From positions 4,480,001 to 4,544,000 of the forward strand of contig CM000154.2 in assembly GCA_000004695.1 (NCBI GenBank): 64,000 bases of DNA. The letters are read 5' to 3'. A program made the position numbers and the translations under genes. The notes beneath the pieces were generated by a model. The model did no database searches. It worked only from the letters and a program-made list of their open reading frames with translations, and was not told the origin of the DNA. Positions 14,357 through 64,000 of the stretch are shown one piece after another. This DNA is from Dictyostelium discoideum (lineage: Eukaryota). Within the stretch, counting starts at the first letter, position 1. The number at the start of each line of letters is the position of its first letter.

Positions 14357-17035
<2,679 letters not shown>

Positions 17036-19747: not shown

Positions 19748-21978
19748 ATGAAATCTATATTAAAGAAAGCAAAACATTTCTTTCACACCAATGAAACAGT
19801 AAATGGAGAAAATGGTGGTGAAAAAACAGCAAAAGAGAGTGAAAGTCAACAACACCACCAACAACAACAACAACATGATGAAAATGGTGCAAACCCACCA
19901 GACCAAGGAGTTGATGAAGCATCAAATGTATCACAATCTCAACCAACTACATCAGCATTACAAACTTCAACCTCATTACAACCATCATCATCATTACATC
20001 AAATTCCTCAATCACAATCTAGCTTAGAATTAACAACTAATCCAACACAACAACTACCAACAACACCAACCAAACAATTACCAACACCACCACCACCACA
20101 ACAACCACATTCACAACAACAACAACAACAACAACAACAATCACAGTCACAATTAAATAATAATGATATTAGTATAAGTACAAATACAAATAATACAACA
20201 AATAATACAAATAATAATAATAATATAGATTCAACACTAACAACACCAGTACCATCATCAGAGAATTTGGCAACATTATCAACATCAACAACTAGTGAAC
20301 AACAACCAAACTCTCAACCAACACCAAATAATACAAATACAACAACTTCACCACCACCATCATCAGCTTCAACTTCAAATTTATCAACATCAACTACTAC
20401 AACTACCACAACAACTACAACTACAACAGCAGCAGCAAATGAAAATACAAATACAACACAAGAACAAACTGTATCACCAAATAAACCACCACAACCACCA
20501 AATGCATTATCACAATCAACAACATCATCATCAACATCATCAACATCATTATTAAGTAGTACATTTTCTAAATTTAAAATTAAACTTGGTAGCGGTTCAA
20601 CAAAGAATAAAGATTCATCATCAGCACCAGGAACACCACATATAAATAATAATAATAATACTGTATCATCATCAAATAAAAATAGATCAACCCTAGTTAT
20701 AACACCAGGATCTGTAAATAATAATAATAACAACCAAAACAATCATAAAAATAATAATACAACACCAGATCACCCTCCAGAAGAACAAAAACCAGTTGAA
20801 AAGGAAGTGATTACAATTGCAACATTGGCAGATTTCCCTGAAGATTGTCAAAAGTTAATAAGAATATCTGGAATTCCAGAAGAGAAATTAATTAAAAATA
20901 TTCAAATTTTAGCATACGTTTTACATTTTAGAACGGGTAGATTCTTTAAATTGGTTGACGAACCACCAAGAGAACCCAGAAAGAAATTTGTATCTGAAAG
21001 ATTTAATGATGGTGAAAAGTTACTTGAACCTGTTGAACCAGCTTTACTAAAGAAAATGTATAAAGATTCTGATCAAGTTGGTAAAGGGTAAGTTTAAAGA
21101 ATTCTTTAATATTTTTATTAAAAAAGTATTTATATATTAATTTTTATTATTTTTTTTATTATTTTTTTTTTAGTGGTTTTGGTACAGTTTATTTTGCAAA
21201 AAGTACAAAAGAAAAAAGATTAGTTGCAATTAAAAAGATGCCACATGTTACAAAGAGACAACAACAACAAAATTTTAGAGAGGCAGCAATTTTAGCAAAA
21301 TGTGATCATCCAAATATCGTAAAATTACATACATGTCATATTGATAAGGATAGTAATCTATGGATAGTTATGGAGTTTATGGAGGGTGGTACATTTGAGG
21401 AGGCAGCAAAGGCATGGAAATTCAATGAGAATAATTTAGCATACGTGGCAAAAGAGTTGTTGAAAGGGTTACAATATTTACACGAAAATCATATGGTTCA
21501 TAGGGATTTGAAGAGTGCAAATATTATGATGAGCGTTGAGGGTAAGGTCAAGTTAATCGATTTCGGTCTATGTGAAGACGTTGCCACCTCGACACCAATG
21601 CATATGGTGGGTTCACCATTTTGGATGGCACCAGAGATGATTCAACAAAAATATCATTCAACTCCTGTCGATATTTGGAGTTTTGCAATCTCTCTTTTGG
21701 AAATGGCAAATCAACGTCCACCAATGATGGAATCTGCCGTAAAAGCAATGTTTACTGTGGCCACCGATGGTGCTACCGGTTTCGATGATCCTGCACTTTG
21801 GTCTGATTGTTTCAAGGATTTCCTATCACTTTGTTTAAAACAAGATCCAGCTGAACGTGCTACTGCCGAAGAACTTTTAAAACATCCTTTCATTAAAAAA
21901 GCTGATTCAAGAGATAATATGGAAAATATACTTAAAAAGATTTTCCTTACAAATTCTTTAATGAATTCTGGTTTCTAA
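19748..21978 (+). CDS. STE20-family serine/threonine protein kinase with long low-complexity (Q/T/N/S-rich) N-terminus; 2 exons 19748..21087 and 21174..21978; about 714 aa
   Basis: The glycine loop is split by the intron (GKG|GFGTVYFAKS; donor GG|GTAAGT, acceptor TTTTTAG|T, phase 2). Kinase motifs: VAIKK, HRDLKSANIMM, DFG, GSPFWMAPE (STE20 signature). Confidence 0.8.
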
Positions 21979-24172: not shown

Positions 24173-24181
24173 ATGATTTCA

Positions 24182-24275
<94 letters not shown>

Positions 24276-24779
24276 TTAAAACTGATGATAATAATAGGTG
24301 TTCTCTTCATCCAACACAAGATTTTATTTTTTTATGTCAAGAATGCGAATTAATTCCATGTTGCTCACATTGTATAGCTATTAGTACAGAAGATAATGAT
24401 CATTCTGGTCATAAAGTTGATATTTTATTAGAGCCAATACTACATGAATTATTTGATAATTTCAATGGTGAAGTATACCCAAGGGTGAATGAAAAACTTG
24501 AAATGTGTAAATCATTATTAAATGAATCAAATAATAAATTTAATCAAATTAAAGTTAATTATGATAATAGTGTAATTTTATTAAAGGACAAATTCCAAGA
24601 GTTTCTAAATTTAATTCGAGTTTTAGAGAGATCAATTCAAAATACTTTGAAAACCACCTACGAGAAAGATATAGAAACTTGTGAAAATATTTCATCCCTA
24701 TTAAATAATAATATTGAAATTCTCACTAAAATTTTAAAAAGTAAAGAAATTTTAAATACTAATGAAATTGAAAATCATG

Positions 24780-24830
<51 letters not shown>

Positions 24831-26552
24831 GAGATAAAACAAAAGAAATACTTAAACAATATCAACTTTCATTATTACACACAAAAAAAGATATTGGTAG
24901 TATTGTAAATAATAGTTTTAAGGACTATAAAAATATAACACTGTTATTCAATGATTCTAGAATTTCTGATATTAAAGAATCTTTAAAATTGATTCATTCA
25001 TTTGAAAATCCAAATGAAAATCCAAATGAAAATCAAATTGAAAATCAAATTGAAAATAAAATTGATGAAATTTCTAAAATTATTTATAAAGAAATTAAAT
25101 TAAAAGAAGAAAAAGAAAAGGAAGAAAAGGAAGAAAAGGAAGAAAAGGAAGAAAAGGAAGAAAAAGTAGAAAATGATGAAAAAGAAGAAAAACAAGATAA
25201 AGAAAAAGAAATAGAAAAAGAAGAACAAATAATAAAATTATATGAAAAAGATCATATAGATAATAATGAAAAAGAAAAAAAATTAAAATTTAAAGAAGAA
25301 ACATTGTATAAAAAAGAAGATTTATTTAATGTTAATGAAATTGAAAATAATGAAACAACATTAGAAAATTTTAAAGTTGGTGATAATAATTTATTTATCT
25401 CTTTTGAAGAAATTAAAAAAAATGAAAAAGAAAATGAAAATATTGGAGAAAAAGAAGAAATTTATGGGAATGGGTTAGTTAGTATTGATATTAAAGAAAT
25501 TGAAGAATCTTCAAATCAAATTATAAATAATAATTATAATTTTAAAACTGATATTAATAATTATCCATATATTCCATGTAAGTTATTAATTTTAATTTTT
25601 TAATAATTTATTCTAAAAACTAAAATAAAAAATTTAACTTTTTGCTTTATTTTTTATTTATTTTATATATATTTTTTTTTTAGGGAGGGGAATTAAAATT
25701 TATATATTTTCAAAAGATAAACCATTCCCAAATAAGCCATATGAAAATTGTGGAATTGCATTTGGTAGTGATTGTGGTAATGTTTCAAAATTAAGCATTT
25801 TACCATCATTTCAGAGTGTTTTATTATTGAATGGATTTGATCAAAGTTTGAAACAAGGTGTAATACCAAATGGTGTAAAATCCATATTAATTCATGATAT
25901 TAAACAGCCATTATTTTCATATTCATTTCCACCATCTGTTGAAACTATAATATTTGGGAATGGTTTCAACCAAATGATAACACCAGGTGTGATCCCAGAA
26001 AAAGGTATTGCTACTCTTTTATTTGGTGATATAAAACAACCATTATTTGCAAAATCAATACCCAATGATATATGTTGTATTTCATTTGGTAATGGGTTCA
26101 ATCATTATTTATCACCAGATGTTATTCCAAATGGTATAACTTTTTTATTTTTACACGAAATTAAGAAACCCTTACAAAAAGGTTCAATTCCCTCAAAGAC
26201 TAAAAGTGTAATATTTGGTAATGGTTTCATTCATCCGTTAACACCTGGAATCATACCAGAGGGAGTAAGAGTCACTTATTTCAATGATATTAAAAAACCA
26301 TTAGTAAAAGGTTCAATTCCAAATACTGTTGAAAGTGTTATCATTGGTAGTGATTTCAATCAAACATTATCCATTGGGATCATTCCTTCCAGTGTAAAAA
26401 ATATAAGTTTTTTAGGTATTAAAAAACCATTAGATCATTTATCAATTCCTGAATCTGTTGAAACTGTACAAATAATTCATGGTTTAAAACATTTGTTAGA
26501 GCCTTGTAAACTATCCAAACACATTAAAATTATTGAATTAAAAAAAAAATAA
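24173..26552 (+). CDS. B-box zinc-finger / coiled-coil protein fused to C-terminal FNIP repeats; 2 exons 24173..25577 and 25684..26552; about 757 aa
   Basis: N-terminal poly-Asn, B-box-like CSLHPTQDFIFLCQECELIPCCSHC...H..H, acidic KEE repeats. Donor CCAT|GTAAGT (25578) and acceptor TTTTTTAG|GG (25683), phase 1. This joins in frame to the FNIP-repeat ORF 25827..26552 (repeated IPxxVxxLxFGxxFNQxL units). Confidence 0.7.
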
Positions 26553-27515: not shown

Positions 27516-37670
<10,155 letters not shown>

Positions 37671-38149
37671 AATAAAAATTTAATAACATTTACTACCATT
37701 AATTTTTGTCTCTCGTGAATAATTTTTTTTTAACAACATTGTCAATGTTATTAGTGTTTATATGTAAAAAAAAATTATTCACCAATTTCAAAATCATTGG
37801 AGTTTTAAAAAGAACCTTTTTCATTAACATTTTAAAATAATAATAACCAAAAATACTATAAACAACAACCTCTATAATATTTTTTATTAATTTTTCTACT
37901 CAAATAACCATTATTTATTTAAATAATTATTATTAAAATATTTTAATTATAATTTAATCTAATTTATATTAACTTTTTAATAAAAAAAATAAAAAAAAAA
38001 TAAAAAAAAATTTTTATAATAAAAAATTAATATTAATTTAAAAATAAAGTAGTATTTTAACAAAAAGGATAATTGTTTTTTTTTAATTTAAAAAATTAAT
38101 AAAAAAAAGCGAAAATGCGTTTTTCACCTTGGGTTTAAAAACGCATGCT

Positions 38150-41100
38150 GGAATGGCTCATGTGGTTTTTTTATTTTAATTTCAATAGACCCACACGTCT
38201 CAAAATCATTCACACAATTAGGTCTTTTAAGTTCAACAGGTAAATGTCATACATTTTCATCGGATGCTGATGGTTATGTTCGTTCAGAAGGTGTTGGTAT
38301 CGTTGTATTAAAGAGATTAAAAGATGCAATCAAAGATTCAAATAATATCTATTGTGTAATCAAAGGATCAAGTTCAAATATCGATGGTAACTTTGATAAA
38401 TTAAACTTTTATTCACCATCAAAATAATCAATATCAGATTCATTGATTTGACCATTGGTTGATTTGATTGCTAATTTGATGTGTGAAACTCATGGTACTG
38501 GTACTCCAACTGGTGATCCAATAGAATTAGAAGGTATATCAAGAGTTTTCAATAATACTAAAATACCATCAACAACAACAACAACAACAAATAATAATAA
38601 ACAAGTTTTAGTTGGATCAATTAAATCAAATATTGGACATCTTGAAGGTAAGTTTATTAATTAAAAATTAAGTCTATAAATAACCAAAGTCAATCATTAC
38701 TAACATTAAATATTGTTTATAATTAATAACAGCATGTTCAGGAGTTGCATCATTAATTAAATGTTGTTTAATGTTTAAAAATAAACTATTTCTTCAAAAT
38801 ATTAATTTCAAAGAACCAAATCCATTAATTAATTTTAAAGAATGGGGATTAAAAGTTGTCACTGAACCAATTAAATTTAATGAAAATAAATCAACTGTCA
38901 TGTTACTTAATAACTTTGGTATAACTGGTAAAAATATATAAATTTTATCTTTTTTTTTAAGTTTATAAAATAAATAATTAACATTATATCATTAATTTAG
39001 GTTCAAATGTTTGTTTAATATTATCTGAATTTAAAAATAATAATCATAATGACTATAGTAGTGGAGTCGAAATTAATGAAAGAAAGAAATATTTAATACC
39101 ACTCTCAAGTAATTCATCAACATCATTAAATAATTATAATTAAACATTCAAATTCAAATTCAACCTCATCATCGACAATAACAACAACAAGTTTCAAAGA
39201 ATACATAATCAAATTAAATTCAAATCAACATCATTAATTCAAAAATCAGTTATAATCGCAAGTGATTGGAATGAATTTCAAGATGAAAATAATCAAATCA
39301 AATTAAATAATAGTGATAATTTAATTTCAAATATTACAGTTGAAAAAAAGAAATCACCAATCACAGTAATTGTATTATGTGGTTAAGGTTCACAATATAA
39401 TAAAATGGCATTATCATTATATGATAACGAACCAGTATTTAGAGAATCTGTCAATAGATTCGATAAAGAGTTATTCAAATATTATGGTTATTCAGTTTTA
39501 GATAAATTAAGATCAATTGATGAAGATTTAATATCAATTCATCATCCAATTTTAGCACAACCTGCAAATGTTATCATTCAAGTATCACTTTATGAATTAT
39601 ATAAACATTGGGGTGTTTCAGCAGATATTATCATTGGTCATTCTCTTGGTGAAATATCATCGTCATATTGTTCAGGTATGATTGATTTTCAAACATTATG
39701 CTACTTGACTTACCATAGATCAGTAGCTCAAAATAGAACCATAGGTACAGGTAGAATGTTATCAGTTAATATTAGTTCAGATGAATTCATTAATAAATAT
39801 CAATCTACAACTAGATATAAATCATTAGAAATTGCATGTTACAATTCACCAACATCAATCGTTATCTCAGGTAAAGAAGACTTATTAAATGAAATTACCA
39901 AAGATTTCAAATCAAACGATATCTTTTGTTCAATGTTAGGATTATTATCATCATTTCATACATCAAGTCAACAAATGATTAAAGATGAAGTATGTTCATT
40001 AAATATTTCATCGAAACAACCATCGATAGCAGTATTTTCAACAGTTACAACCAGTTTATTCGATCATCAAACTTCACCGTTCAATGCAGGTTATGCATTT
40101 AATAATATTCGCCAACCAGTTCGTTTCACACAAACAATAACAAATCTTTACAAACATATCGAATCAAATGATATGGGTAATGAAATTACATTCATTGAAG
40201 TTTCACCACATCCAACATTACAATATTACTTAAATCAAATGAAATCAACTCAATCAAGTTACTTTAATAATGGTAAAAACATTACAATCTATTCACCATT
40301 AAATAAAAAGAAGAATGATTATAATGAATTCTTAAAGACAATCTCTTTATTATTTGTCAATAATAATTTTGATATTAATTTCAAATCACAATTAATTAAT
40401 AACAGTATTAACCATACAAACCAATCAAATAATTTACCACTTTACCAATGGGATGATAAAGAATACTTTAAACTAAACTCATCACTTGAAAAGATTAAAA
40501 ATGAAGGTCCATCCATTCACAGTCTTGGTAATAATACAGATTCACCATATCCATCATATCAAACATTTATCGATATCAAGAAATTACCATTCCAATGGTT
40601 AAAAGGTCATCAAGTTAGTGATAAATTCTATTATCCAGGAATGGGATATGTTCACAATTTATTATCAATTTATCCATATCAAGATATTACAATTAGCTCA
40701 TTAGAATTTAAATCACCATTATTATTAACAGAAGGTATTAATCAATGTTTACAAACTACAATTGCACCACTATCAAAGAATGAATTCAATATTAAAAGTC
40801 ATTATAAAGATCAAAAAACAAATCAATGGATATTATCATCTCTTGGTAATTTTAGTTTAACCAAACATAACAGTATCATCATCAACAAATTAATTAATAT
40901 TCAATCATTAAAAGATAAATGCAATTTTACAATCATTCCAAAACAAGATTTTTATGAAACTATTAGAATTAAAGCAAATTTAATATACAAAGGTTTATTT
41001 CAAGGTGTAAAACAATGTCATATCGGTAATAATTGTTCATTAGCAATAGTATCACTAAATGAAATTTATAATCAAAAAGAATATAATCATTTAATTAACA

Positions 41101-42268
41101 ATGGCAATATGAATACATTCTTTAATAGGGCAATTTTAGATACTTGTTTACATGGAGTTTTAGGTGGATTTACAAAACCAGTCGTACTTGATAGAATTGA
41201 AGCTTTCAAATTTTACTCTTCAAATATTCCATTATTAAATGAAAATGACAATAGCAATAATAATGGTATTGTTTTAGATATATTAAAATATTTGGTTAAA
41301 TATTCAAATGATTCAATTGAAAATATAATAATACTTTCAAAATCAAAACTAAAATGGGAATTAGAATTATTAATCAATCAAAGCAAATTTAAAAAAGATA
41401 ATAATATTAAATTCCATTTCTATCAAATCGATATTGAAGATTCAAATAAAGTTAATCAAGTATTAAATCAATTAGAATTAAATGAAAATATTACAAACAT
41501 TGATTCAATCATTCATTTTGCATTTATGAATGATATTGTGATGTTCAACAAATTGATATGAATCGTTTAAATAATACACATGGTGCTAAAACGATTGGAG
41601 CAATTAATCTTCACAATCAATCAATTAATTGTTCATGGAATATCAAACAATTTATAATGGCATCATCAGTAGTTTCAATATTTGGATCAGATCAACAATG
41701 TTGTTATGTTAGTGCATGCAATGTAATCGATTCATTATCAAAGTATAGACATTCAATTGGATTACCATCTTTAGCCATTAATTTAGGTGCGATATCGTCA
41801 ACTGGTTTCATATCACGTAATAATGCAATTGAAACAATGTTTCAGAGTTATTTTTTAAAAATATTCTCACCTCAACATGTTATTAGCTCATTAGATTTAT
41901 TCATTCAAAATCAACATCAATATCCAAATTATTGTGTATCAGATTTCGATTTTGAAATTTTACCATCAACTTTAACAAACCAATACCATTCAAAATTTGA
42001 TTTTGGAATTAAATATTTCGCTGGTGATAATAATAATGGAACTATTCACTCAACAATTTTAAATAAAATCAGTGAATTATTATCAATTGACGAATCTAAA
42101 ATCAATGAAGATTTACAACTCACACAATATGGTATGGATAGTTTAGTAATTGTACAATTAAAGAATTTTATCGATAATCAATTAGGTCATAATATTATCA
42201 CAATTCAACAATTACAAAATAATAAAATCAATCAATCAATTGAAATCATTAAATCAGCTCACAACAAA

Positions 42269-42314
<46 letters not shown>

Positions 42315-42350
42315 GCAATAATAATAGCAATAATGAACTGGTATAAAAAT
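38150..42350 (+). pseudogene. Rearranged PKS pseudogene copy: starts at exon-4 homolog, has a 56-bp micro-inversion in KS, a nonsense codon, an internal ~3 kb deletion removing C-MeT+ER, a frameshift before KR, and truncation after ACP
   Basis: 38425..38480 is the exact reverse complement of the KS segment ATCAAATTAGCAATCAAATCAACCAATGGTCAAATCAATGAATCTGATATTGATTA. TGTGGTTAAGGT at ~39380 (CGQG -> CG*). DH sequence ...[31 protein letters not shown] joins directly to KR. ...MNDIVMFNKLI* versus ...[17 protein letters not shown] (frameshift ~41540). It ends NNELV* at 42346, and homology to A/B is lost at ~42350. Confidence 0.7.
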
Positions 42351-42862
42351 AAAATTTGTGACGAAAAAAAAAATAATAATTCAAATATTAATTTGGTTTC
42401 ACATAGTTGTAAACATAATTAATTTTGTTTTTTAAATAACCACTTTGGGCAATTTATTGTTTATTTCCTTTTATGGATTAAAACTGATATATCAAAAAAA
42501 ATGTTAGCTAAGTAAATATTAAATAAATATTTATTTAATAACAATAATAATAATAATAATAATGTTTAATTAATAATATTACATAATATAATTGAAAAAT
42601 CTTTTTATATTTAATTAATAAATGATTACATTTAATCTCTTTTTATAACTTTTTTTTTTTTTTTTCTATTTGATCTCTTTTTTTATTATAAATTAAATAT
42701 ATGAATGTTTAGTAGTTTGAAATCATAAAACAATTGGGAATTTTCCTATTGTGGTTGAGCATTACGATGTGCTAAAATCCTAAATTATCTATCGATACAA
42801 GATTCACTTAGTTTTTCAAGAATATGAAATATAAAATAATAACAAATGTAATTTTTTTTTAT

Positions 42863-44288: not shown

Positions 44289-44356
<68 letters not shown>

Positions 44357-47300
44357 GAGCCGATTTAATAATTTCAATTGATTGATTGATTTTATTATTT
44401 TGTAATTGTTGAATTGTGATAATATTATGACCTAATTGATTATCGATAAAATTCTTTAATTGTACAATCACTAAACTATCCATACCATATTGCGTGAGTT
44501 GAAGGTCTTCATTGATTTTAGATTCATCAATCGATAATAATTCACTTATTTTATTTAAAATTGTTGAACGAATAATTTCATTATTATCACCATTACCACC
44601 AGTGAAAGATTTCATTTGATTTGATTTTTTAACAATATTAATTTCAAAATCAAATTTTGAATGGTATTGATTTGTTAAAGTTGATGGTAAAACTTCAAAA
44701 TTGAAATCTGATAAACAGTAATTTGGATATTGATGTTGATTTTGAATGAATAAATCTAATGAACTAATTACGAGTTGAGGTGAGAATAAATTAAAAATTG
44801 AACTCTTAAACATTGTTTCAATTGCATTATTACGTGATACGAAACCAGTTGATGATATCGCACCTAAATTAATGGCTAAAGATGGTAATCCAATTGAATG
44901 TCTATACTTTGATAATGAATCGATAACACTACATGCACTAACATAACAACATTGTTGATCTGATCCAAATATTGAGACTACTGATGATGCCATTATAAAT
45001 TGTTTGATATTCCATGAACGATTAATTGATTGATTGTGAAGATTAATTGCTCCAATTGTTTTAGCACCATGTGTATTATTTAAACGATTCATATCGACTT
45101 GTTGAACATCACCAATATCATTCATAAATGCAAAATGAATGATTGAATCAATGTTTGTAATATTTTCATTTAATTCTAATTGATTTAATACTTGATTAAC
45201 TTTATTTGAATCTTCAATATCTATTTGATTGAAATGGAATTTAATATTATTATCTTTTTTAAATTTGCTTTGATTGATTAATAATTCTAATTCCCATTTT
45301 AATTTTGATTTTGAAAGTATTATTATATTTTCAATTGAATGGTTTGAATATTTAACCAAATATTTTAATATTTCTAAAACAATACCAGTTTGACCAGTGA
45401 GTAAAATATTTTTACCAATATTTAATTTTGAAATATCATATAAATGTTTCATTATGATATGATTGTTATTACTTTGATAATTATTATAAACTCTATTAAA
45501 TTCATCTTGATTATGATTAACAATGATTTTACCAATATGTTTTCTTTGATTTATATATTCAATTGCATCTTTAAATTGATTATTTGAATATTCAATGATT
45601 GGTACACTTAACTCTAATTTATTTGAATTAATCATTTTGATAATTTTCTTTAAATAGCTTTTGATTAATTTACTAGTGAAATCGACAACTTCTACATTAC
45701 TATATGTCATATTAAATTTGAAATGATTATTTGTCATATAATCATTTGGTGTGAGATGAGTGATACTTAAATCAACGATACGTCCTGATAAATTTAAACA
45801 TTGGAAATTTGAATCCATATACTCTGATGATAATGTATTTAATATTAAATCTACACCTTGTTGTTCAACTTCACCTAATTCCATTAATTTATTCTTTATA
45901 TCTTTGACATAGTTTTTATTACGAGATGAATAGATAGCAGTAATTAATGATCCATATTTCTTTATTAAGTATTCTTCTTTATCTTTTGAACTAACTGTTA
46001 AAAATATATAACCTTGATGTTGTTTACTTTTTAATAAATCTAAAGATGATATACCAATACCACCTGCTGCTGAATGAATTAAAATTGATTCATTTGATTT
46101 TAAATTACCAATACTGTAGATACTATGTAATGATGTAATATAAATAGATGGTATTGATGCTGAAACTGAATGGCTATAATTTAATGGTTTATAATAAATA
46201 GAAGTGAAATCTACAATAACATGTGAACTACTTGCTTTTGAACCAATACCACAAACTTGATCACCAACTTTAAATTTCTTTACATTATTACCTAATCTTG
46301 TAATAATACCACTAAAGTCATTACCAATGTTTGGATTATCAATACCAATACCATTTTCAATTTCATACTCTTTACCATACTTAATATCTAAATCTGAACC
46401 AATCATACCGATATACATTAAATAATCTTTATAATTTATACCAGTTGCCTTAACTTCTATCTCTACTTCATTTGAATTTAATTTAGCTTTTTTACTATAT
46501 AATTGATATTCTAAATTTGAATTTAATTGAATATATAAATTATCTTTATTGGTTTCAAATGATTTAGATTGGAATATACTTTTAATATTATTTGATCTTC
46601 TACAATATCTTTCATAGTATACTTTATTATTATTAATTGTAAATTCTTTTTGAATATTATTATTTGGATTGATTAAATAATTGATTAATGATAATTGTTG
46701 ATTATTTTCAATTGAAATATTATCATAATTTAAAGTTAATAAATCTAATTGTGGGAATTCAACGAAATAACGAGCAGCACCAATAATTGATGATGATAAA
46801 TAATTATCAGTGGTTGAATTTAATGATAATAATAAATGTTTGAAATTATTTGATAATTCTAATTTTAATATTAATTGATTAATTTGAATGTATTCAAATG
46901 TGATCTCTTTGAAATTAAAAGTATTCATTGTTGATTCAATTGATTTTAAAAATATTATTAATGTTTTATTACAATCATCTTTATTTTGATAATTTGTAAT
47001 CCATGATTGAAATTCATTGTAATTACTAATATTAACGATTTTGTGTTTTAATTCTTGATTTAATCTTATTAAATTTTGTATACTACTGCTGCAGATATCA
47101 TTTTTATAACTATTAATATTTCTAATATTATTACTGTTACTACTAAATAAAATAATGTTATTGAAAGAATTTAATTGATCTAATGATATTGATTGTTCTG
47201 AAATGATTTCATTAATTGTTGGTTTTCTAGTTTGAATTAAAAATACTAAATTATCATTACCAGACATTATTGTATCTCTATAATTACATTGATTTAAAAG

Positions 47301-54535: not shown

Positions 54536-56338
54536 TTAATTACGTTTTATGAATAAGGCATCAAAAGGTTTACATTGCATTGCCAAACCAACTTCTCCTT
54601 CAACATCAATTGGAATATCAGTTGGATTGACTATTTTAAAATTCTTTAACATTATCACCAAAAATGTAAAAGTCAAAGATTCTGTAAATCTTCCTCCTGG
54701 ACAACCTCTAGGTCCTGTTTTAAAAAAAATAATAATGATGATTATTATTATTATTATTATTATTATAAATTAGTTGTAAATTAAAAAAAAAAAAAATAGT
54801 GGTAAATTTTAATTCCTTTTTAAAATGGTATCAAAACATACCTGCACCAAAATGAAAAAGTCCTTTTTGATATAAAGGTTGATTTTTAAATCTTTCTGGT
54901 TTAAATTCTAAAGCATCTTCACCCCAAAACTCTTTTGATAAATGTGTACCACGAAGATTTTTAATTATCATTGTACCTTTTGCAATTTTATATCCATTTA
55001 CTTCAACATCTTCTGTTGTTTTATTCGGTTCAGTTATTGGTACTGAAGAATTATATCTATATGATTCTATTATTCAAATTAATACAAAATTTATTTTTTG
55101 AAAAAATATATCAACACATATTAATACCAATATATATATATATATGGATAATTACCATTCATTACAGAAATAATATATGGATATTTTGTATGATCAGCAA
55201 ATGATATATTATTTGTATTATTATTTTCATCATTTCTCATGATTTCTTCATATATTTTATCTTGAATTTCAGGTTTATTAATTAATTGACCAATTAAAAG
55301 ACTAAACCCATTGGATGTTGAATCAACTGCTGCAAAAATAATATCAGAAATTGAAAACAAGATTGAATCATAATGAATTGAACCATCTAAATAATTTTTA
55401 TAATAATTCTCAATAATTGGAATATTGTTTAGTTTTGAAGATGTTTCATCAGTAGTTTCATTTTTCAATTCATTTTCTTTTTCATATTTAATTTTAATAG
55501 CATCAAGTTTTATACCTATAAAATCTTTTAAAAAAAAGTAACTAGAAATAATATCATTCTTTGACATTGATTTTATATCTAATGGAAATAAAAATGGTAA
55601 ATAATCAGAGTAAATTAATAATCCAGCAGCTTCAAAAATGCATTTAATCTTTTCTACAATGATTAGAATGGTTTCATCATTCTCTTCAATTCCTAATGTG
55701 AAATTTAATATTAATTTAACAGCAAGAATCCTAATTTGATTTGGTGTATTTTTAACAAGAGTTTCTTTATTATCTTTACAAAGATTACTAAACATTTCTA
55801 AAATAAATTTATTTGATTCTAATCTGCCATTATTTAACTTTCTTGTTGTAATTTCACTTGTAAGAATTCCTCTTAGAACATAATGATAATCACCATTTGA
55901 AGAAATAATGTTATAATCTTTACCAAAAAATCTTGAGAATTTAATATATCTTTCTTTGAAAATTTCTCTATGTTTTTTATTAAAACATTCATCAATAACT
56001 TCAGGCCCTGTTAGAACAACAATTTCAACACTACCCAATCTTAATCTAAAAACTTTGCCATATCTTTCATAGAAATCATTTACACTTTTTGGGAAATCTT
56101 TTGCGTTAATTTGTAATAAATTACCAAAAACTGGAATTGTAGAAGGACCAGGTATTAATTTATTAATTTTTTTAATCCTACCTTCAAATAATAAATCCTA
56201 TTTAAAAAAATAAAAGTATAAGTAAGTGTTTAATTTTTAATAATCAATAATATATATAATATTTTAAAATTTTACTTTTAATATTAATGATAATACTAAT
56301 ATTGTAATTGTTAAAATAATTGTAAATATTGTATTCAT
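54536..56338 (-). CDS. Cytochrome P450 monooxygenase, 4 exons on the - strand: 56276..56338 (ATG 56338), 55156..56197, 54842..55066, 54536..54714; about 502 aa
   Basis: N-terminal membrane anchor MNTIFTIILTITILVLSLILK, proline hinge PGPSTIPVFGNL, I-helix AAVDSTS, ExxR (ESYR), PERF, and heme loop split by the intron FHFGAG|PRGCPGGRF. GT-AG junctions and phases are consistent (63+1042+225+179 = 1509 nt). Confidence 0.8.
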
Positions 56339-57478
56339 TGTAATATTATAAAATATTTTAATTGAGAATCTTTTATATTAAAGTTTTTATATTAAAAAAA
56401 AAACTATTTAAATTATAAAATAAAAAAAACCAATAATGTTTTTGTTAAAAACAAATTGATATATTTAAATTTTGGGGAAGTGGGTTAAAATAATTAATTA
56501 TAAAAAAAAAAAAAACCACCAAATTTTTTTTTTTTTTTTCTTTATTAATAATTAAAAAACTTTTTTTATTTCTAAAAACGAACTTGAAAACAGTTTAGAA
56601 AACAGTTTTTAATTTATTTTTTGAAACTGTTTAATTTTATTTTATTTTAATTTTAAAAAAAAAACCAAAATAAAAAAATGACCATTGTACCTTTTGTAAT
56701 ATACTTCAATAAACTGTTTTTTTATTATTTAATTTTAAAAACAAAAATAAAAACAAAAATAAAAATAAAAATAATGAATTAAAAAAAAAAAAAAAAAAAG
56801 TTATAAGATATCTAATTAAGGGTGTAAAAATTTCAGCAATATTTTTTATTTTTATTAATTTTTTTCTGTAATAAATTCGTAAACATATAATAAAAAAGAG
56901 ATATCAAATAGAAACAAAAAAAATAAAAAAGTTTTAACATTTCAAAAAAAGAGAAGTTTAAAATTTAAGGGGGTAAAAAAAACATTTTTTTTTTTTTTTT
57001 TGTAAATTGACAAACACAAAAGCAAACTATACATTAAGTTAAATCTATTAAATAGTTTTTTATATAGAGTCTCGGGGAAATCACCAGATTTCAAAAAAAA
57101 AAATAAAAAAAAATAAAAAAAAACATAATTTTGGGTCAAATAAAAAACAAAAATTTTTTTTTTTATAGTGCGAATTAAAATTAATTATTTGTGTTGAAAG
57201 TAATATCCAAACAATCTAACCTTTTTTTTATTTTTATTTTTTTAATAACTATAAACGTCATCAAATTTTTTATTTAATTTTTTTTTTTATTTCTATAATA
57301 ATATCAAATTTATTTATTTTATTTTATTCTATTTTATTCTATTTTATTCTATTTTATTGTATTTTATTTTATTTTATTTTATTTTATTTTATTTATTTGT
57401 AAAAGAGAAAAGACACAAAATATAGATAATAATAATAAGGGATAGAAATGATGATGATGATGTTGATAGAAATGATGA

Positions 57479-59648: not shown

Positions 59649-62600
59649 ATGAATAATTTAGAAATTATAAATTTAATAGATAAAGGTGTTGCAATTGTTG
59701 GGGTGGGGTTTAGAATTCCTTCTGGTAATAATGAAAATTCAATTTGTTCACCAGATGATTTATTTAATAATTTAAAGAATGGTTTTGATGGTGTTAGTAG
59801 TACATCAGAAAGATGGAGTGACAATTTTCATAAATTAGGTGAAATTAGTAGTCCAAATGCAGGTTTATTACCATTTAATGAATGCAAATCATTCGATCCA
59901 TTATTTTTTGGTATTAATCCATCCGATGCTCATCAGATTGATCCTCAACAAAGATTATTATTAAAATGTACATGGGAAGCATTAGAAGATGCATCTATCG
60001 ATCCAATTTCAATTCGTGGTACAAATACTTCAGTTTTCATTGGTTCTTCAAATATTGATTATCAACATATAAATAAACACCAAGACTCAGTTTTAAAAAA
60101 TGTAATAGCACAATCTGCCTATGCTGTTTCAAATAGAATTTCATACTGTTTCGATTTTAATGGTCCATCATTATCAATCGATACTGCATGTTCATCATCA
60201 TTAAATGCAGTTTCTCAAGGTTATCATTCAATATTAAATGGTACTTCCAATATGTCAATTGTTGGTGGTGTAAATTTAATATTAGGTAAGAATTACATTT
60301 AAATATATTATATATAAAATACACTCATTAATTAATTTTTTATTTAAATATTTTACTAGATGTTGGAATGATAAAAGCATATTCGTATTTAAGCATGTTA
60401 AGTAAAACACATGGTAAATGTAAAGCATTTGATGAAAGTGGCGATGGTTTTACACGTGGTGAATGTGCTACTATTGTAGTTTTAAAAAATTTACAAGATG
60501 CAGTTAAAGATGGTAATAGAATTTATTGTGTAATTAATGGCTCAAGTTCAAACGTTGATGGCGGCGGTCATATGGATAAAGTTAACCTTTATTCACCATC
60601 AAAGCAATCACAATTTAATAATATTAATTCAGCATTTAAATCAACCAATGGTAAACTTTCAATTAATGATATTCAATATATCGAAGCACATGGTACTGGT
60701 ACTAAAACAGGCGATCCAATTGAAACTGAAGCAATTTCAATGGCTTTTAAAAATAGAGATAAATCAACACCAATTCTAATTGGTTCAATTAAAAGTAATA
60801 TTGGTCATTGTGAAGCTGGTTCAGGTGTTGCATCATTAATCAAATGTTGTTTAATGTTTAAATATCAATGCTTTTTACCAAATATTCATTTCAAAAATCC
60901 AAATCCATTAATTAAATTCAATGAATGGAATTTAAAAGTTGTAACATCACCAATTCCATTCAACAAAAGAATTAATGAAAAACCAGTTTCAATGATGATT
61001 AATAACTTTGGTGTAACAGGTTCAAATTGTTGTTTACTTATTTCAGAATTTAAAAAACAAGATTATGAATCATATGAAAACAACAACAACAACAAAAGTA
61101 ATCATAAAAATATATTAATACCATTCTCAGCAAATTCATCAAATTCATTAAATCAATACCAATCAAAATTTAAAAATATAATTAATAATCAATTCAATTT
61201 TATTGATTTTACCGCAAATCAAATTTATTCAAAATCAAATTATCTTTATCAAAGATCAGTTGTAATTGCAAGTAATTCAAATGAACTTTTTGAAAAAATT
61301 TTAAATAAAAAACAAATTCAAACTAAAAATTCAATCATTTCGAATATGTCATTCAAAGGAAAGAACCCAATTACAATTTTTGTTTTTTCAGGTCAAGGAT
61401 CACAATATCCTAAAATGGCTTTAGAATTATATAATAATGATGAAATTTTTAAGAAGTCAATTGATTTAATCGATTCAAAATTATCAAAGTACTATGGTTA
61501 TTCAGTATGGGGGAAGTTAACAACGATCAAAGATGATGACTTGACCTCAATACATGATCCAATTTTCGCACAACCAGCACTGTGTATGCTTTCAGTATCA
61601 CTATTTGAAATATATTGCCATTGGGGAGTAAATCCATCATTTATTCTTGGTCATAGTCTTGGTGAAATTTCAGCAGCATATTGTTCTGGAATGATCGATT
61701 TAGATACATTCTGTTATACAGTTTATTACAGATCAATCGCCCAATCTAAAACAAATGGTTGTGGTAGAATGTTATCAATTAATATCAGTGATGAAGAATT
61801 TAAATCAATGTATTCTCAAAAGTATCCACAAATTGAAATTGCGTGTTATAATTCACCTCAATCAATTGTTGTGGCAGGTAATGAATCAATATTAAATGAA
61901 ATTTCGAAAGAATTAAAAGAAAAAGAAATTTTCACTGCAATGTTAGGTTCATTATCATCATTCCATACAAGTAGTCAGCAATGTACAAAAGATAGTATAT
62001 TACAACTAAACATTGAAAGTAATCAACCAAAAGTACCAATATTTTCAACAGTTACAACAAATTTATTTAATGAATCAAATCGATTTAATTCACAATATGT
62101 TTATGATAATATTATCAAACCAGTTAAATTCACACAAACAATTTCAAATATTTATAAACATATCGAATCAAATCAATTAAATAATGATATTGTATTCATT
62201 GAAATTGCACCACATCCAACAATATCATTTTATATTAAGCAAATGGTACCATCAAGTTTAAATGAATCAGTTTCAGTTTATTCAGCACTTCACAAGAAAA
62301 AGAATGATGTCGAAGAGTTTCAACAAACCATTTCAAATTTATATTGTCAAAATGGATATAGTATTAATTTTAAATGTCAATTGGAAAATAAAAAATCAAA
62401 TCAATCAATAAATTTACCACTTTACCAATGGGATGATGAATTATACTTCGCTCAAACTCAAACACTTGAACAATATACAAAAGAAGGACCACCAATCGAT
62501 CATCTTGGTCTATCAAACTCTTATTATTCACCATTTAAAAATTCATATAGAACATTTATTGATATAAATAATAAACCATTCCAATATCTTAAAGGTCATA

Positions 62601-64000
62601 TGGTTAAAGGTAAATACTACTTCCCAGGTTGTGGTTATATCGATATTATTATTCAACTTTATAAAAATCAAGATATTTTTATTAGTTTTATTGAATTTAA
62701 AACACCATTAATTTTAATTGAAGGTATCAATCAATATTTACAAACAAACATTCAACAAACTGGTAAAAGTGAATATCGTGCACAATTTCATTTCAAAGAT
62801 CAAAAATCAAATGAATGGATTCAATCATCAAATGCAAATTTCCAATTATTAGATCATGGTAATGATATACCATCAAATTATAATATTGAAGAAATTATTA
62901 AAAACAAATGTAATTTGAGCAAATTAACAAAGAATGAACTTTATACACAAATAAAATCAAAAACTGGTTTGAATTATACTGGTGTTTTTCAAGGTGCTAC
63001 TGAATGTTATTTAGGTAATGATTGTTCATTATCAGTTTTATCTTTAAAATCTCAAACAAATTCATTTTTAAATATACCAATTTTAGATACATGTTTACAT
63101 GGAATGTTAGTATTAATAAATGATCAAAGTCAAATTGTATTTGATAAAGCCATTGGATTTAAATATTATTCATCAAACATACCATCGGATCTTAAAGAAT
63201 ATAAAGATAGTATTTATGTTTATTCCAATTTAAAACCAAAAAATGCTGATTCATACCATGGATCTATTATAGTAATGTTATCAGATGGTTCAGTTTTATA
63301 TGAAATTCAAGAAGTTATTTTTAAATCATTAATTCCAATCAAACATTCACTTAAAATTGAGTATCCAAATGATGAATTATACAAAGTTCATTTACAATCA
63401 AAAGATTCTCAAATTCCAACGCCATCATCATTCAAATCAATTATTTATGAAAATGATTTCTTCCATTCTGCACTTAATATTCCAGAAGATTTATTCAAAT
63501 ATATTTCAACATTATTTTATAAAGATATTATAAAAAGATGTCCAGAAATTAATATCAATAAAATTAATTCTCATAGTGTTAATGAAATTATTTCAAGTTT
63601 CAGTAAAATTTCAAAAAATCAAAGATTATTTAGATTTGTATTTGAAACAATAAAAGAGAATGGTATTCTTAATAGTTTGGAAGAAAATGATGATGCTTAT
63701 TTCGAATTTAATGAATTAGTTATTAAATCATCAAAAATTATTTCAAAATTATTATTCCCACTAGAAAGTGATAATGATAATGAAGATTTACCTCAATCAT
63801 TATTTCAAAATGGTTTAATGGATAAAATTTATAAATGCAGTTATTTAAGAAAGAAGTATCAAATGATTTCACATGTCATTATACATTCAATTAAAGAGAT
63901 TATTAATAATAATATTATAATTAGAATTTTAGAATTTGGAGGAGGCACTGCGTCATTATCAGTTGAAGTTATTGGAGAAATCGTTGCATTACTTCAAGAG
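59649..64000 (+). CDS. Divergent type I PKS D, 5' part (runs off window end): exon 1 59649..60285, exon 2 60360..>64000 (KS-AT-DH-CMeT seen)
   Basis: [30 protein letters not shown]. Intron GTAAGAAT...TACTAG (60286..60359), phase 1. AT motif GHSLGE (~61650), [17 protein letters not shown] (~62600), C-Me[11 protein letters not shown] (~63930). The frame is open to the window end. Confidence 0.8.

Follow-up and report, generated by a model that had tools for sequence, protein, structure and literature searches.

A decayed polyketide synthase copy, very probably a duplicated pseudogene, between two intact genes of Dictyostelium discoideum

In 2007 Zucko et al. reportedly counted 45 polyketide synthase (PKS) genes, 5 of them probable pseudogenes, often lying in clusters of very similar copies. 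In the present study, a 64-kb window of Dictyostelium discoideum DNA (the whole stretch that was analysed; G+C ~22%) was examined for a decayed PKS fragment that occupies 38166 to ~42398 on the + strand. This 4.2-kb partial copy, hereafter psi, lies between two intact PKS genes, designated A and B, and we consider it very probably a non-processed (duplicated) pseudogene of a D. discoideum type I iterative highly reducing PKS. Dictyostelid PKS pseudogenes and the fast turnover of these genes have been reported before (PMC9618038; PMC3188802): ~40 PKS genes, five of which are pseudogenes with interrupted reading frames, have been described in D. discoideum (PMC9618038), and the dictyostelid PKS families undergo rapid turnover (PMC3188802). 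Psi resembles the five published pseudogenes in gene family, in species and in having decayed inside a cluster of very similar tandem copies; however, it is truncated more heavily than a gene merely interrupted by stop codons. Psi is an ordinary case of a known phenomenon and will be no surprise to specialists.

The models of the flanking genes A and B were derived from conserved peptides together with GT...AG introns. Gene A (27516-37670, + strand) is an intact PKS of 7 exons (27516-27879, 28185-28377, 28471-28595, 28696-29160, 29304-29498, 29580-37046 and 37150-37670) encoding 3109 aa. Gene B (52622-42863, - strand) is likewise an intact PKS of 7 exons (52622-52247, 52145-51953, 51881-51757, 51686-51219, 51117-50923, 50851-43493 and 43383-42863) encoding 3078 aa. 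Each model forms one single open reading frame (ORF), all introns are of the GT...AG type, and identical protein lengths stand in the gene table of assembly GCA_054883475.1. In A, Pfam domains were found in the order KS, AT, DH, C-methyltransferase (C-MeT; Methyltransf_12), ER (ADH_N/ADH_zinc_N_2), KR, ACP and a terminal NAD_binding_4 reductase. Psi follows A in tandem, 495 bp 3' of the stop codon of A, and is arranged tail-to-tail with respect to B; the mutual DNA identity of A, B and psi is ~90%.

Homology was mapped by BLASTN of 37701-42800 against the whole window, by a three-way MAFFT alignment of psi, A and B, by a table of indels and by conceptual spliced translation. As revealed by BLASTN, psi 38166-41268 aligned with B 51705-48569 (90.5%) and with A 28679-31835 (89.9%), psi 41264-42326 aligned with B 45387-44291 (91.9%), and psi 41264-42398 aligned with A 35050-36220 (89.7%). 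Because these alignments span 3.1 kb plus 1.1 kb at ~90% identity, a chance match is of no concern. Psi thus shares with A and B ~90% nucleotide identity over 4.2 kb, the positions and phases of introns 4 and 5, and the order KS-AT-DH...KR-ACP; in contrast to both genes, it lacks exons 1-3, the counterpart of A residues 1206-2271, the reductase domain and exon 7, and it contains stop codons, frameshifts and an inversion.

The surviving parts of psi, all on the + strand, begin with a remnant of the 3' end of intron 3 (38166-38188), where homology to A and B starts at 38166-38173 in the BLASTN and MAFFT alignments, no more than ~25 nt from the acceptor. This remnant is followed by an exon-4 homolog (38189-38647), which encodes the final 45 residues of KS-N and part of KS-C and retains the donor GTAAGT as well as the HGTGT and GHxE histidines; the KS matches cover Pfam positions 208-252 of 252 in ketoacyl-synt and 47-118 of 119 in Ketoacyl-synt_C. 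The intron-4 homolog (38648-38732) has retained GT...AG, as has the intron-5 homolog (38928-39000). Between them lies an exon-5 homolog (38733-38927) of 195 nt, the same length as in A, which encodes the last part of KS-C and runs into the C-terminal extension of KS. The truncated exon-6 homolog (39001-42346) comprises the KS-AT linker, AT, the N-terminal part of DH, KR minus the Gly loop, ACP and the first part of the poly-Asn linker. Accordingly, the only Pfam domains found in psi were the KS tail, AT, PKS_DH_N, KR from profile position 23, and ACP with its GMDSL motif retained. The AT domain gave a full-length Acyl_transf_1 match (E = 5e-43) and contains IIIGHSLGE, and it is preceded by the TAA at 39384. 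Of the features of a functional PKS, psi lacks a complete KS, DH/C-MeT/ER, the KR NADPH motif, the terminal reductase and a continuous frame; it does possess an AT domain with GHSxG. Judged by these features, psi would be expected to make no functional enzyme.

Psi carries at least seven independent disabling lesions, which were checked base by base in the alignments and by targeted inspection of the sequence. Its reading frame is broken five times, and four internal in-frame stops (38425, 38449, 39141 and 39384) were found, plus a frameshift. An earlier interpretation of this DNA made from its letters (hereafter the sequence-only reading) had described a copy that starts at the exon-4 homolog without promoter and exons 1-3, that contains a micro-inversion and a nonsense codon (TGT GGT TAA GGT) near 39380, and that stops after the ACP with loss of the reductase domain. 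Alignment to A, which had been proposed as the check and was run with MAFFT with B included, bore out these elements and confirmed the lesions of a pseudogene. The number of disabling lesions, given there as five, proved too low; the reading had not listed the two stops within the inversion (38425 and 38449), nor the 11-nt and 4-nt deletions in the KS-AT linker with the TAA at 39141-39143.

The first of these lesions is the 5' truncation. Its breakpoint lies inside intron 3, so that the promoter and exons 1-3 are gone, and the KS catalytic cysteine (DTACSSS, encoded by exon 3) was lost along with them. When exons 1-3 of A were used in tblastn searches, no remnants of these exons were detected in 37671-38200. 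Exactly at the breakpoint stands a filler of 57 nt (38109-38165, + strand) with 46% G+C, in a flank (the 3' region of A) of 12% G+C. Within the filler lies a perfect inverted repeat of 10 bp (ATGCGTTTTT / AAAAACGCAT). No second copy of the filler was present in the window or in the Dictyostelium loci that were fetched, and it showed no tRNA and no Rfam match. It might be the remnant of a mobile element, or filler DNA left by the deletion event.

Within the exon-4 homolog, a micro-inversion combined with a deletion was located at 38419-38481 (+ strand), with 55-62 nt inverted. By BLASTN, 38419-38480 is the reverse complement of A 28950-29011 with 61/62 matches, and the match to B is equally good. 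On close reading, psi follows A through TCAAAAT, 38426-38480 is then the reverse complement of A 28950-29004, and the sense orientation resumes at TGTGAAACTC. Seventeen nt (A 28933-28949) were lost in the process; the net change is -18 nt, which leaves the downstream frame intact. However, the inverted stretch itself introduces the stops TAA (38425-38427) and TGA (38449-38451). An imperfect 7-nt inverted microhomology (TCAAAAT / TCACAAT, 6/7) is present at the left junction, and BLASTN found the ancestral orientation in all other PKS copies of the window. Such a pattern is that of intrastrand template switching, which we infer as the putative mechanism.

Two further lesions precede or enter the AT domain. 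In the KS-AT linker, indels relative to B of -11 nt (~39139), +12 nt, +6 nt and -4 nt (39201) leave the stretch between them (39139-39205, + strand) out of frame, and this stretch contains the in-frame TAA 39141-39143. At the start of the AT domain, within the LCGQGSQ motif, the codon at 39384-39386 (+ strand) is TAA where both A and B have CAA.

The largest internal lesion is a deletion whose junction lies at 41264-41267 (41265|41266, + strand), with a 2-nt TG microhomology, and which is in frame: psi lacks 3198 nt of A (31854-35051) and 3186 nt of B, and both lengths are divisible by three. As a result, the counterpart of A residues 1206-2271, i.e. 1,062-1,066 codons, is absent. Lost by this deletion are C-MeT, ER, the structural subdomain of KR, LLTGQT from its NADPH motif, and the last ~50 residues of the DH Pfam match. 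Consistent with this, the Pfam scan of psi gave no Methyltransf or ADH matches and the PS-DH match was lost; the KR match begins at profile position 23 in psi (position 4 in A) because the KR Gly motif was deleted. The sequence-only reading had been correct as to the size of this deletion (~3.2 kb) and the peptide at its junction, where DH is joined to KR, but had confined the loss to C-MeT and ER, whereas the end of DH and, in KR, the first strand together with the Gly loop are missing as well. It had also placed a frameshift just before the KR NAD(P) motif. The frameshift is genuine, a 1-nt deletion between 41537 and 41538 that leads to a TGA at 41559-41561 (41537-41561, + strand), where A reads GATATTAGTGAT and B reads GATATTGGTGAT; its position, however, is after the FAFMNDI strand and ~90 codons downstream of the KR Gly-rich NADPH motif (TGQTG), which was itself destroyed by the large deletion.

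At the other end of psi, homology ceases at 42335-42398 (+ strand), within the poly-Asn linker after the ACP, and the frame closes at TAA 42344-42346. Neither tblastn nor Pfam revealed a remnant of the reductase domain (NAD_binding_4) or of exon 7 on the 3' side of psi. In addition to its disabling lesions, psi contains in-frame indels: +9 at 38558, -18/-24 nt (relative to A/B) at 39031, -3 at 39522, +3 at 40871, -27 at 42010 and -9/-6 at 42030. As a separate observation on the linkers, long (AAT)n tracts at 36080-36210, 32340-32430, 44290-44360 and 42263-42335 code for poly-Asn linkers, which separate the ACP from the reductase domain and DH from C-MeT, and whose lengths vary among A, B and psi.

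Two long ORFs remain on the + strand of psi. ORF 1 (39405-41561; 718 aa) encodes AT, the truncated DH and a KR fragment, and extends from the first ATG past the TAA at 39384 to the stop created by the 1-nt deletion. ORF 2 (41558-42346; 262 aa) encodes the C-terminal half of KR and the ACP with GMDSL, and starts at an internal Met with the original frame restored. Each opens, in the original frame, at the first ATG past a lesion and ends at the next lesion or at the original 3' end; these ORFs would be by-products of the positions of the lesions. The concern that they were open to mis-annotation, voiced in the sequence-only reading, was well founded, since the annotation of GCA_054883475.1 places three genes on psi, called 'hypothetical protein' wherever a name is recorded. 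The first, at 38479-39143, is a spliced gene for 168 aa (KAM9948296.1); the second, at 39405-41561 (+ strand), encodes 718 aa (KAM9948297.1, ACTFIT_001647, hypothetical protein [Dictyostelium discoideum], record CM142511.1); the third, at 41657-42346, encodes 229 aa.

If these calls represented real genes, the products might be a stand-alone AT-DH of 718 aa that acts in trans on the synthases next to it and a free KR-ACP or carrier protein of 229 or 262 aa. Such an explanation could appeal to the length of the ORFs despite a 22% G+C genome rich in stops, to the full-length AT match and the motifs GHSLG and GMDSL, to a ratio of nonsynonymous to synonymous substitution (dN/dS) below 1 on the psi branch, and to the GenBank entries KAM9948296.1 and KAM9948297.1. 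We nevertheless regard it as very improbable. The ORF boundaries match the lesions exactly; the product of ORF 1 would be a DH clipped by ~50 residues at its C-terminus and joined to a KR piece that has no NADPH loop, that of ORF 2 would be half a KR with no cofactor site, and neither is plausible as an enzyme to judge from these domain remnants. Moreover, what precedes ORF 1 is 1.2 kb of decayed KS with three stops and no promoter-like intergenic region, and the substitutions in ORF 1 (28.5 nonsynonymous : 15.5 synonymous) give the same dN/dS as the parts of psi that cannot be translated. The exact ORF products were present only in GCA_054883475.1's own annotation, with the 718-aa product occurring once in the protein collection and an identical product in no other source of it. 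KAM9948296.1, KAM9948297.1 and the 229-aa call are, on the pseudogene interpretation, pieces of one dead PKS and ought to be combined into a single entry marked as a pseudogene. If left unmarked, such fragments artificially raise the counts of PKS genes and orthogroups and can misdirect the search for biosynthetic genes in genomes; the main value of our result lies in annotation hygiene.

Selection was assessed over the 1,199 codons that could be aligned in psi, A and B, with the inverted and frame-shifted stretches excluded. In pairwise comparisons, dS and dN/dS were 0.094 and 0.36 for psi and A, 0.095 and 0.38 for psi and B, and 0.089 and 0.28 for A and B, respectively. When changes were assigned to branches, the psi branch received 57 nonsynonymous and 32 synonymous changes (dN/dS 0.44), the A branch 26 and 25 (dN/dS 0.26), and the B branch 30.5 and 26.5 (dN/dS 0.29). 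Several points here weigh against the interpretation of psi as a dead gene. The excess of replacements in psi agrees in direction with expectation but falls short of significance against A plus B (Fisher p = 0.11), and the dN/dS of 0.44 lies significantly under the naive neutral expectation (binomial p = 4.5e-4). The AT domain, GHSLG included, is complete and has hardly changed. Of all the lesions, only the 1-nt deletion at 41537/8 might in theory reflect a sequencing error, the assembly being Nanopore-based. Because 0.44 is not significantly greater than the value for A plus B and falls below neutrality, the substitution pattern alone leaves loss of constraint unproven. A ratio so far below neutrality implies that psi was functional for most of its branch, or that it was refreshed by gene conversion.

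An artefact of assembly, in which reads from the near-identical A and B were collapsed or joined into a chimera, was also considered. Paralogs ~90-98% identical pose a problem for assemblers, the assembly relies on Nanopore data together with Illumina reads (PMC12745789), and a 1-nt deletion is typical of long-read errors. The assembly series of GCA_054883475.1 apparently stems from Holland et al. 2025, whose authors report that they validated structural assembly quality with CRAQ (PMC12745789). The 89 codon changes that are unique to psi and spread along its whole length, together with its own indels, mark psi as a separate locus and not a mixture of A and B. Moreover, the inversion and deletion junctions carry microhomology typical of genuine rearrangements, and PKS fragments between full-length genes occur, with different junctions, in two more Dictyostelium assemblies. 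On this evidence we consider an artefact extremely improbable.

Evidence of sequence exchange was found mainly in the AT segment. Over psi 39206-40411, A 29806-31014 and B 50625-49420, identity among all three sequences is ~98%, and the synonymous divergence of AT is 2-4 times lower than that of DH and KR on every branch. From the values for DH and KR, 22 synonymous changes were expected in the AT segment and 10 were observed (Poisson p = 0.003). Psi also shared longer runs of variable sites than permutation predicts, with A over 38661-38730 (p = 0.003) and with B over 40741-40861 (p = 0.025), in tests on three sequences and few sites. The near-identity of AT is suggestive, and only suggestive, of concerted evolution that takes in the dead copy. 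These results bear on a further explanation, compatible with the pseudogene interpretation, by which a dead psi is kept as a gene-conversion partner of A and B, as a reservoir or a sink of variation. The tree topology, which is not the same for the AT and KR segments, speaks for it along with the AT deficit and the shared runs; on the other hand, low divergence could also come from the local mutation rate, or from codon constraint in A and B plus recent duplication, and no converted tract carrying a psi lesion was seen in A or B. We view this explanation as rather unlikely. A stronger form, in which psi is an active partner in the concerted evolution of the cluster through ongoing gene conversion, receiving sequence from the functional synthases and passing variation or lesions on to them, seems decidedly improbable; if true, it would go some way towards accounting for the rapid and lineage-specific way in which PKS genes turn over in Dictyostelium. 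The data hint faintly that dead copies take part in gene conversion. The branch dN/dS of only 0.44 and the low AT divergence suggest that psi, as a pseudogene, was inactivated fairly recently, or still exchanges sequence with A and B by gene conversion, or both.

As to the origin of psi, introns 4 and 5 are kept at the parental positions, which shows a local duplication at the DNA level and not retroposition; a processed pseudogene (retrocopy) was rejected on the grounds of the same two retained introns. No flanking direct repeats were found around psi. Neighbour-joining trees of the AT segment and of the KR-ACP segment were built from psi, A, B and the PKS copies from two other Dictyostelium assemblies. 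Psi clustered with A and B, apart from the copies of the other two assemblies, and had the longest branch among the three, a pattern consistent with local triplication and later decay of the middle copy. Psi thus arose by local duplication of DNA, introns included. Later it lost its 5' end (promoter and exons 1-3), its 3' end (reductase domain and exon 7) and 1,062-1,066 internal codons, and gained the template-switch-like micro-inversion, the nonsense substitution and several frameshifting indels. Psi thereby offers a compact textbook example of tandem PKS decay in Dictyostelium, with microhomology-mediated deletion, template-switch-like inversion, point nonsense mutation and small indels all on show.

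Comparable material was found in two other Dictyostelium loci, L002 (GCA_054859385.1; 10001-14319) and L003 (GCA_054859205.1; 6923-15313), where short gene calls for KS/AT and KR/ACP lie between PKS genes of ~3,100 aa and the strings of fragments adjoin a P450. These fragments are like psi in their 89-90% identity to it and in their placement between full-length PKS genes, and are unlike it in their deletion junctions and neighbours. A single orthologous pseudogene common to other strains was rejected for the fetched L002 and L003 on the basis of the different junctions and an identity of at most 95%, and none of the fetched loci was a near-identical ortholog. The L002 and L003 fragments are independent decay events in paralogous or rearranged clusters. 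Since their junctions differ from those of psi, PKS decay of this sort is recurrent.

With regard to named genes, A and B are probably pks33 (DDB_G0290729) and pks34 (DDB_G0290737) of the PKS cluster on chromosome 5, an assignment that draws on gene length and neighbours and not on a sequence match. The supplement of PMC3188802 (Table S6, gene lists) gives 3127 aa for DDB_G0290729 and 3078 aa for DDB_G0290737 (pks34), and in the same range of IDs it lists mkcB (DDB_G0290723) and alg7 (DDB_G0290751). The assignment follows from the identity in length of B and pks34 (3078 aa) together with the alg7-family and kinase ORFs nearby in the window; the kinase ORF may be mkcB. Searches for proteins homologous to A and B returned short PKS fragments of new assemblies only, with no full-length or AX4/UniProt entry, and a search for the AX4 locus through neighbouring single-exon genes returned nothing or 2.8-kb Logan contigs only. 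Three dictyBase IDs that lie between pks33 and pks34, namely DDB_G0290731, DDB_G0290733 and DDB_G0290735, may correspond to psi; no mention of these IDs was found in the literature searched. Because pks33 and pks34 are numbered consecutively, psi was probably never given a number of its own, provided that A and B are indeed these two genes.

Other PKS sequences were observed elsewhere in the window. A second decayed PKS fragment at 3047-5518 (- strand) extends from partial exon 1 to the AT domain and is interrupted by stops in both exon 4 and AT. Owing to an internal deletion of the segment that corresponds to A 29181-29900, the end of its exon 4 runs straight into exon 6, and the fragment is truncated in the AT-DH linker, with 96% identity to A 29900-31008. 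Two PKS genes are cut by the edges of the window: one at 1-2323 (- strand), with 83% identity to the 5' part of A, and one at 59649-64000 (+ strand), with only ~69% identity to A and psi.

The window also contains genes of other kinds. To the left of A are genes for an O-methyltransferase (7859-9174), a class-III aminotransferase (9222-10469, - strand), a GT4 (alg7-family) glycosyltransferase (11705-12625, - strand), a poly(A)-binding protein (PABP; 14408-17035), a protein kinase (21238-21978) and a B-box protein (24173-25603). For some minus-strand ORFs among these neighbours the coordinates are offset by one codon (stop included, start left out), which does not affect the Pfam assignments. 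A cytochrome P450 gene was located at ~54822-56429 (- strand); together with the methyltransferase, it could supply tailoring enzymes of the PKS cluster.

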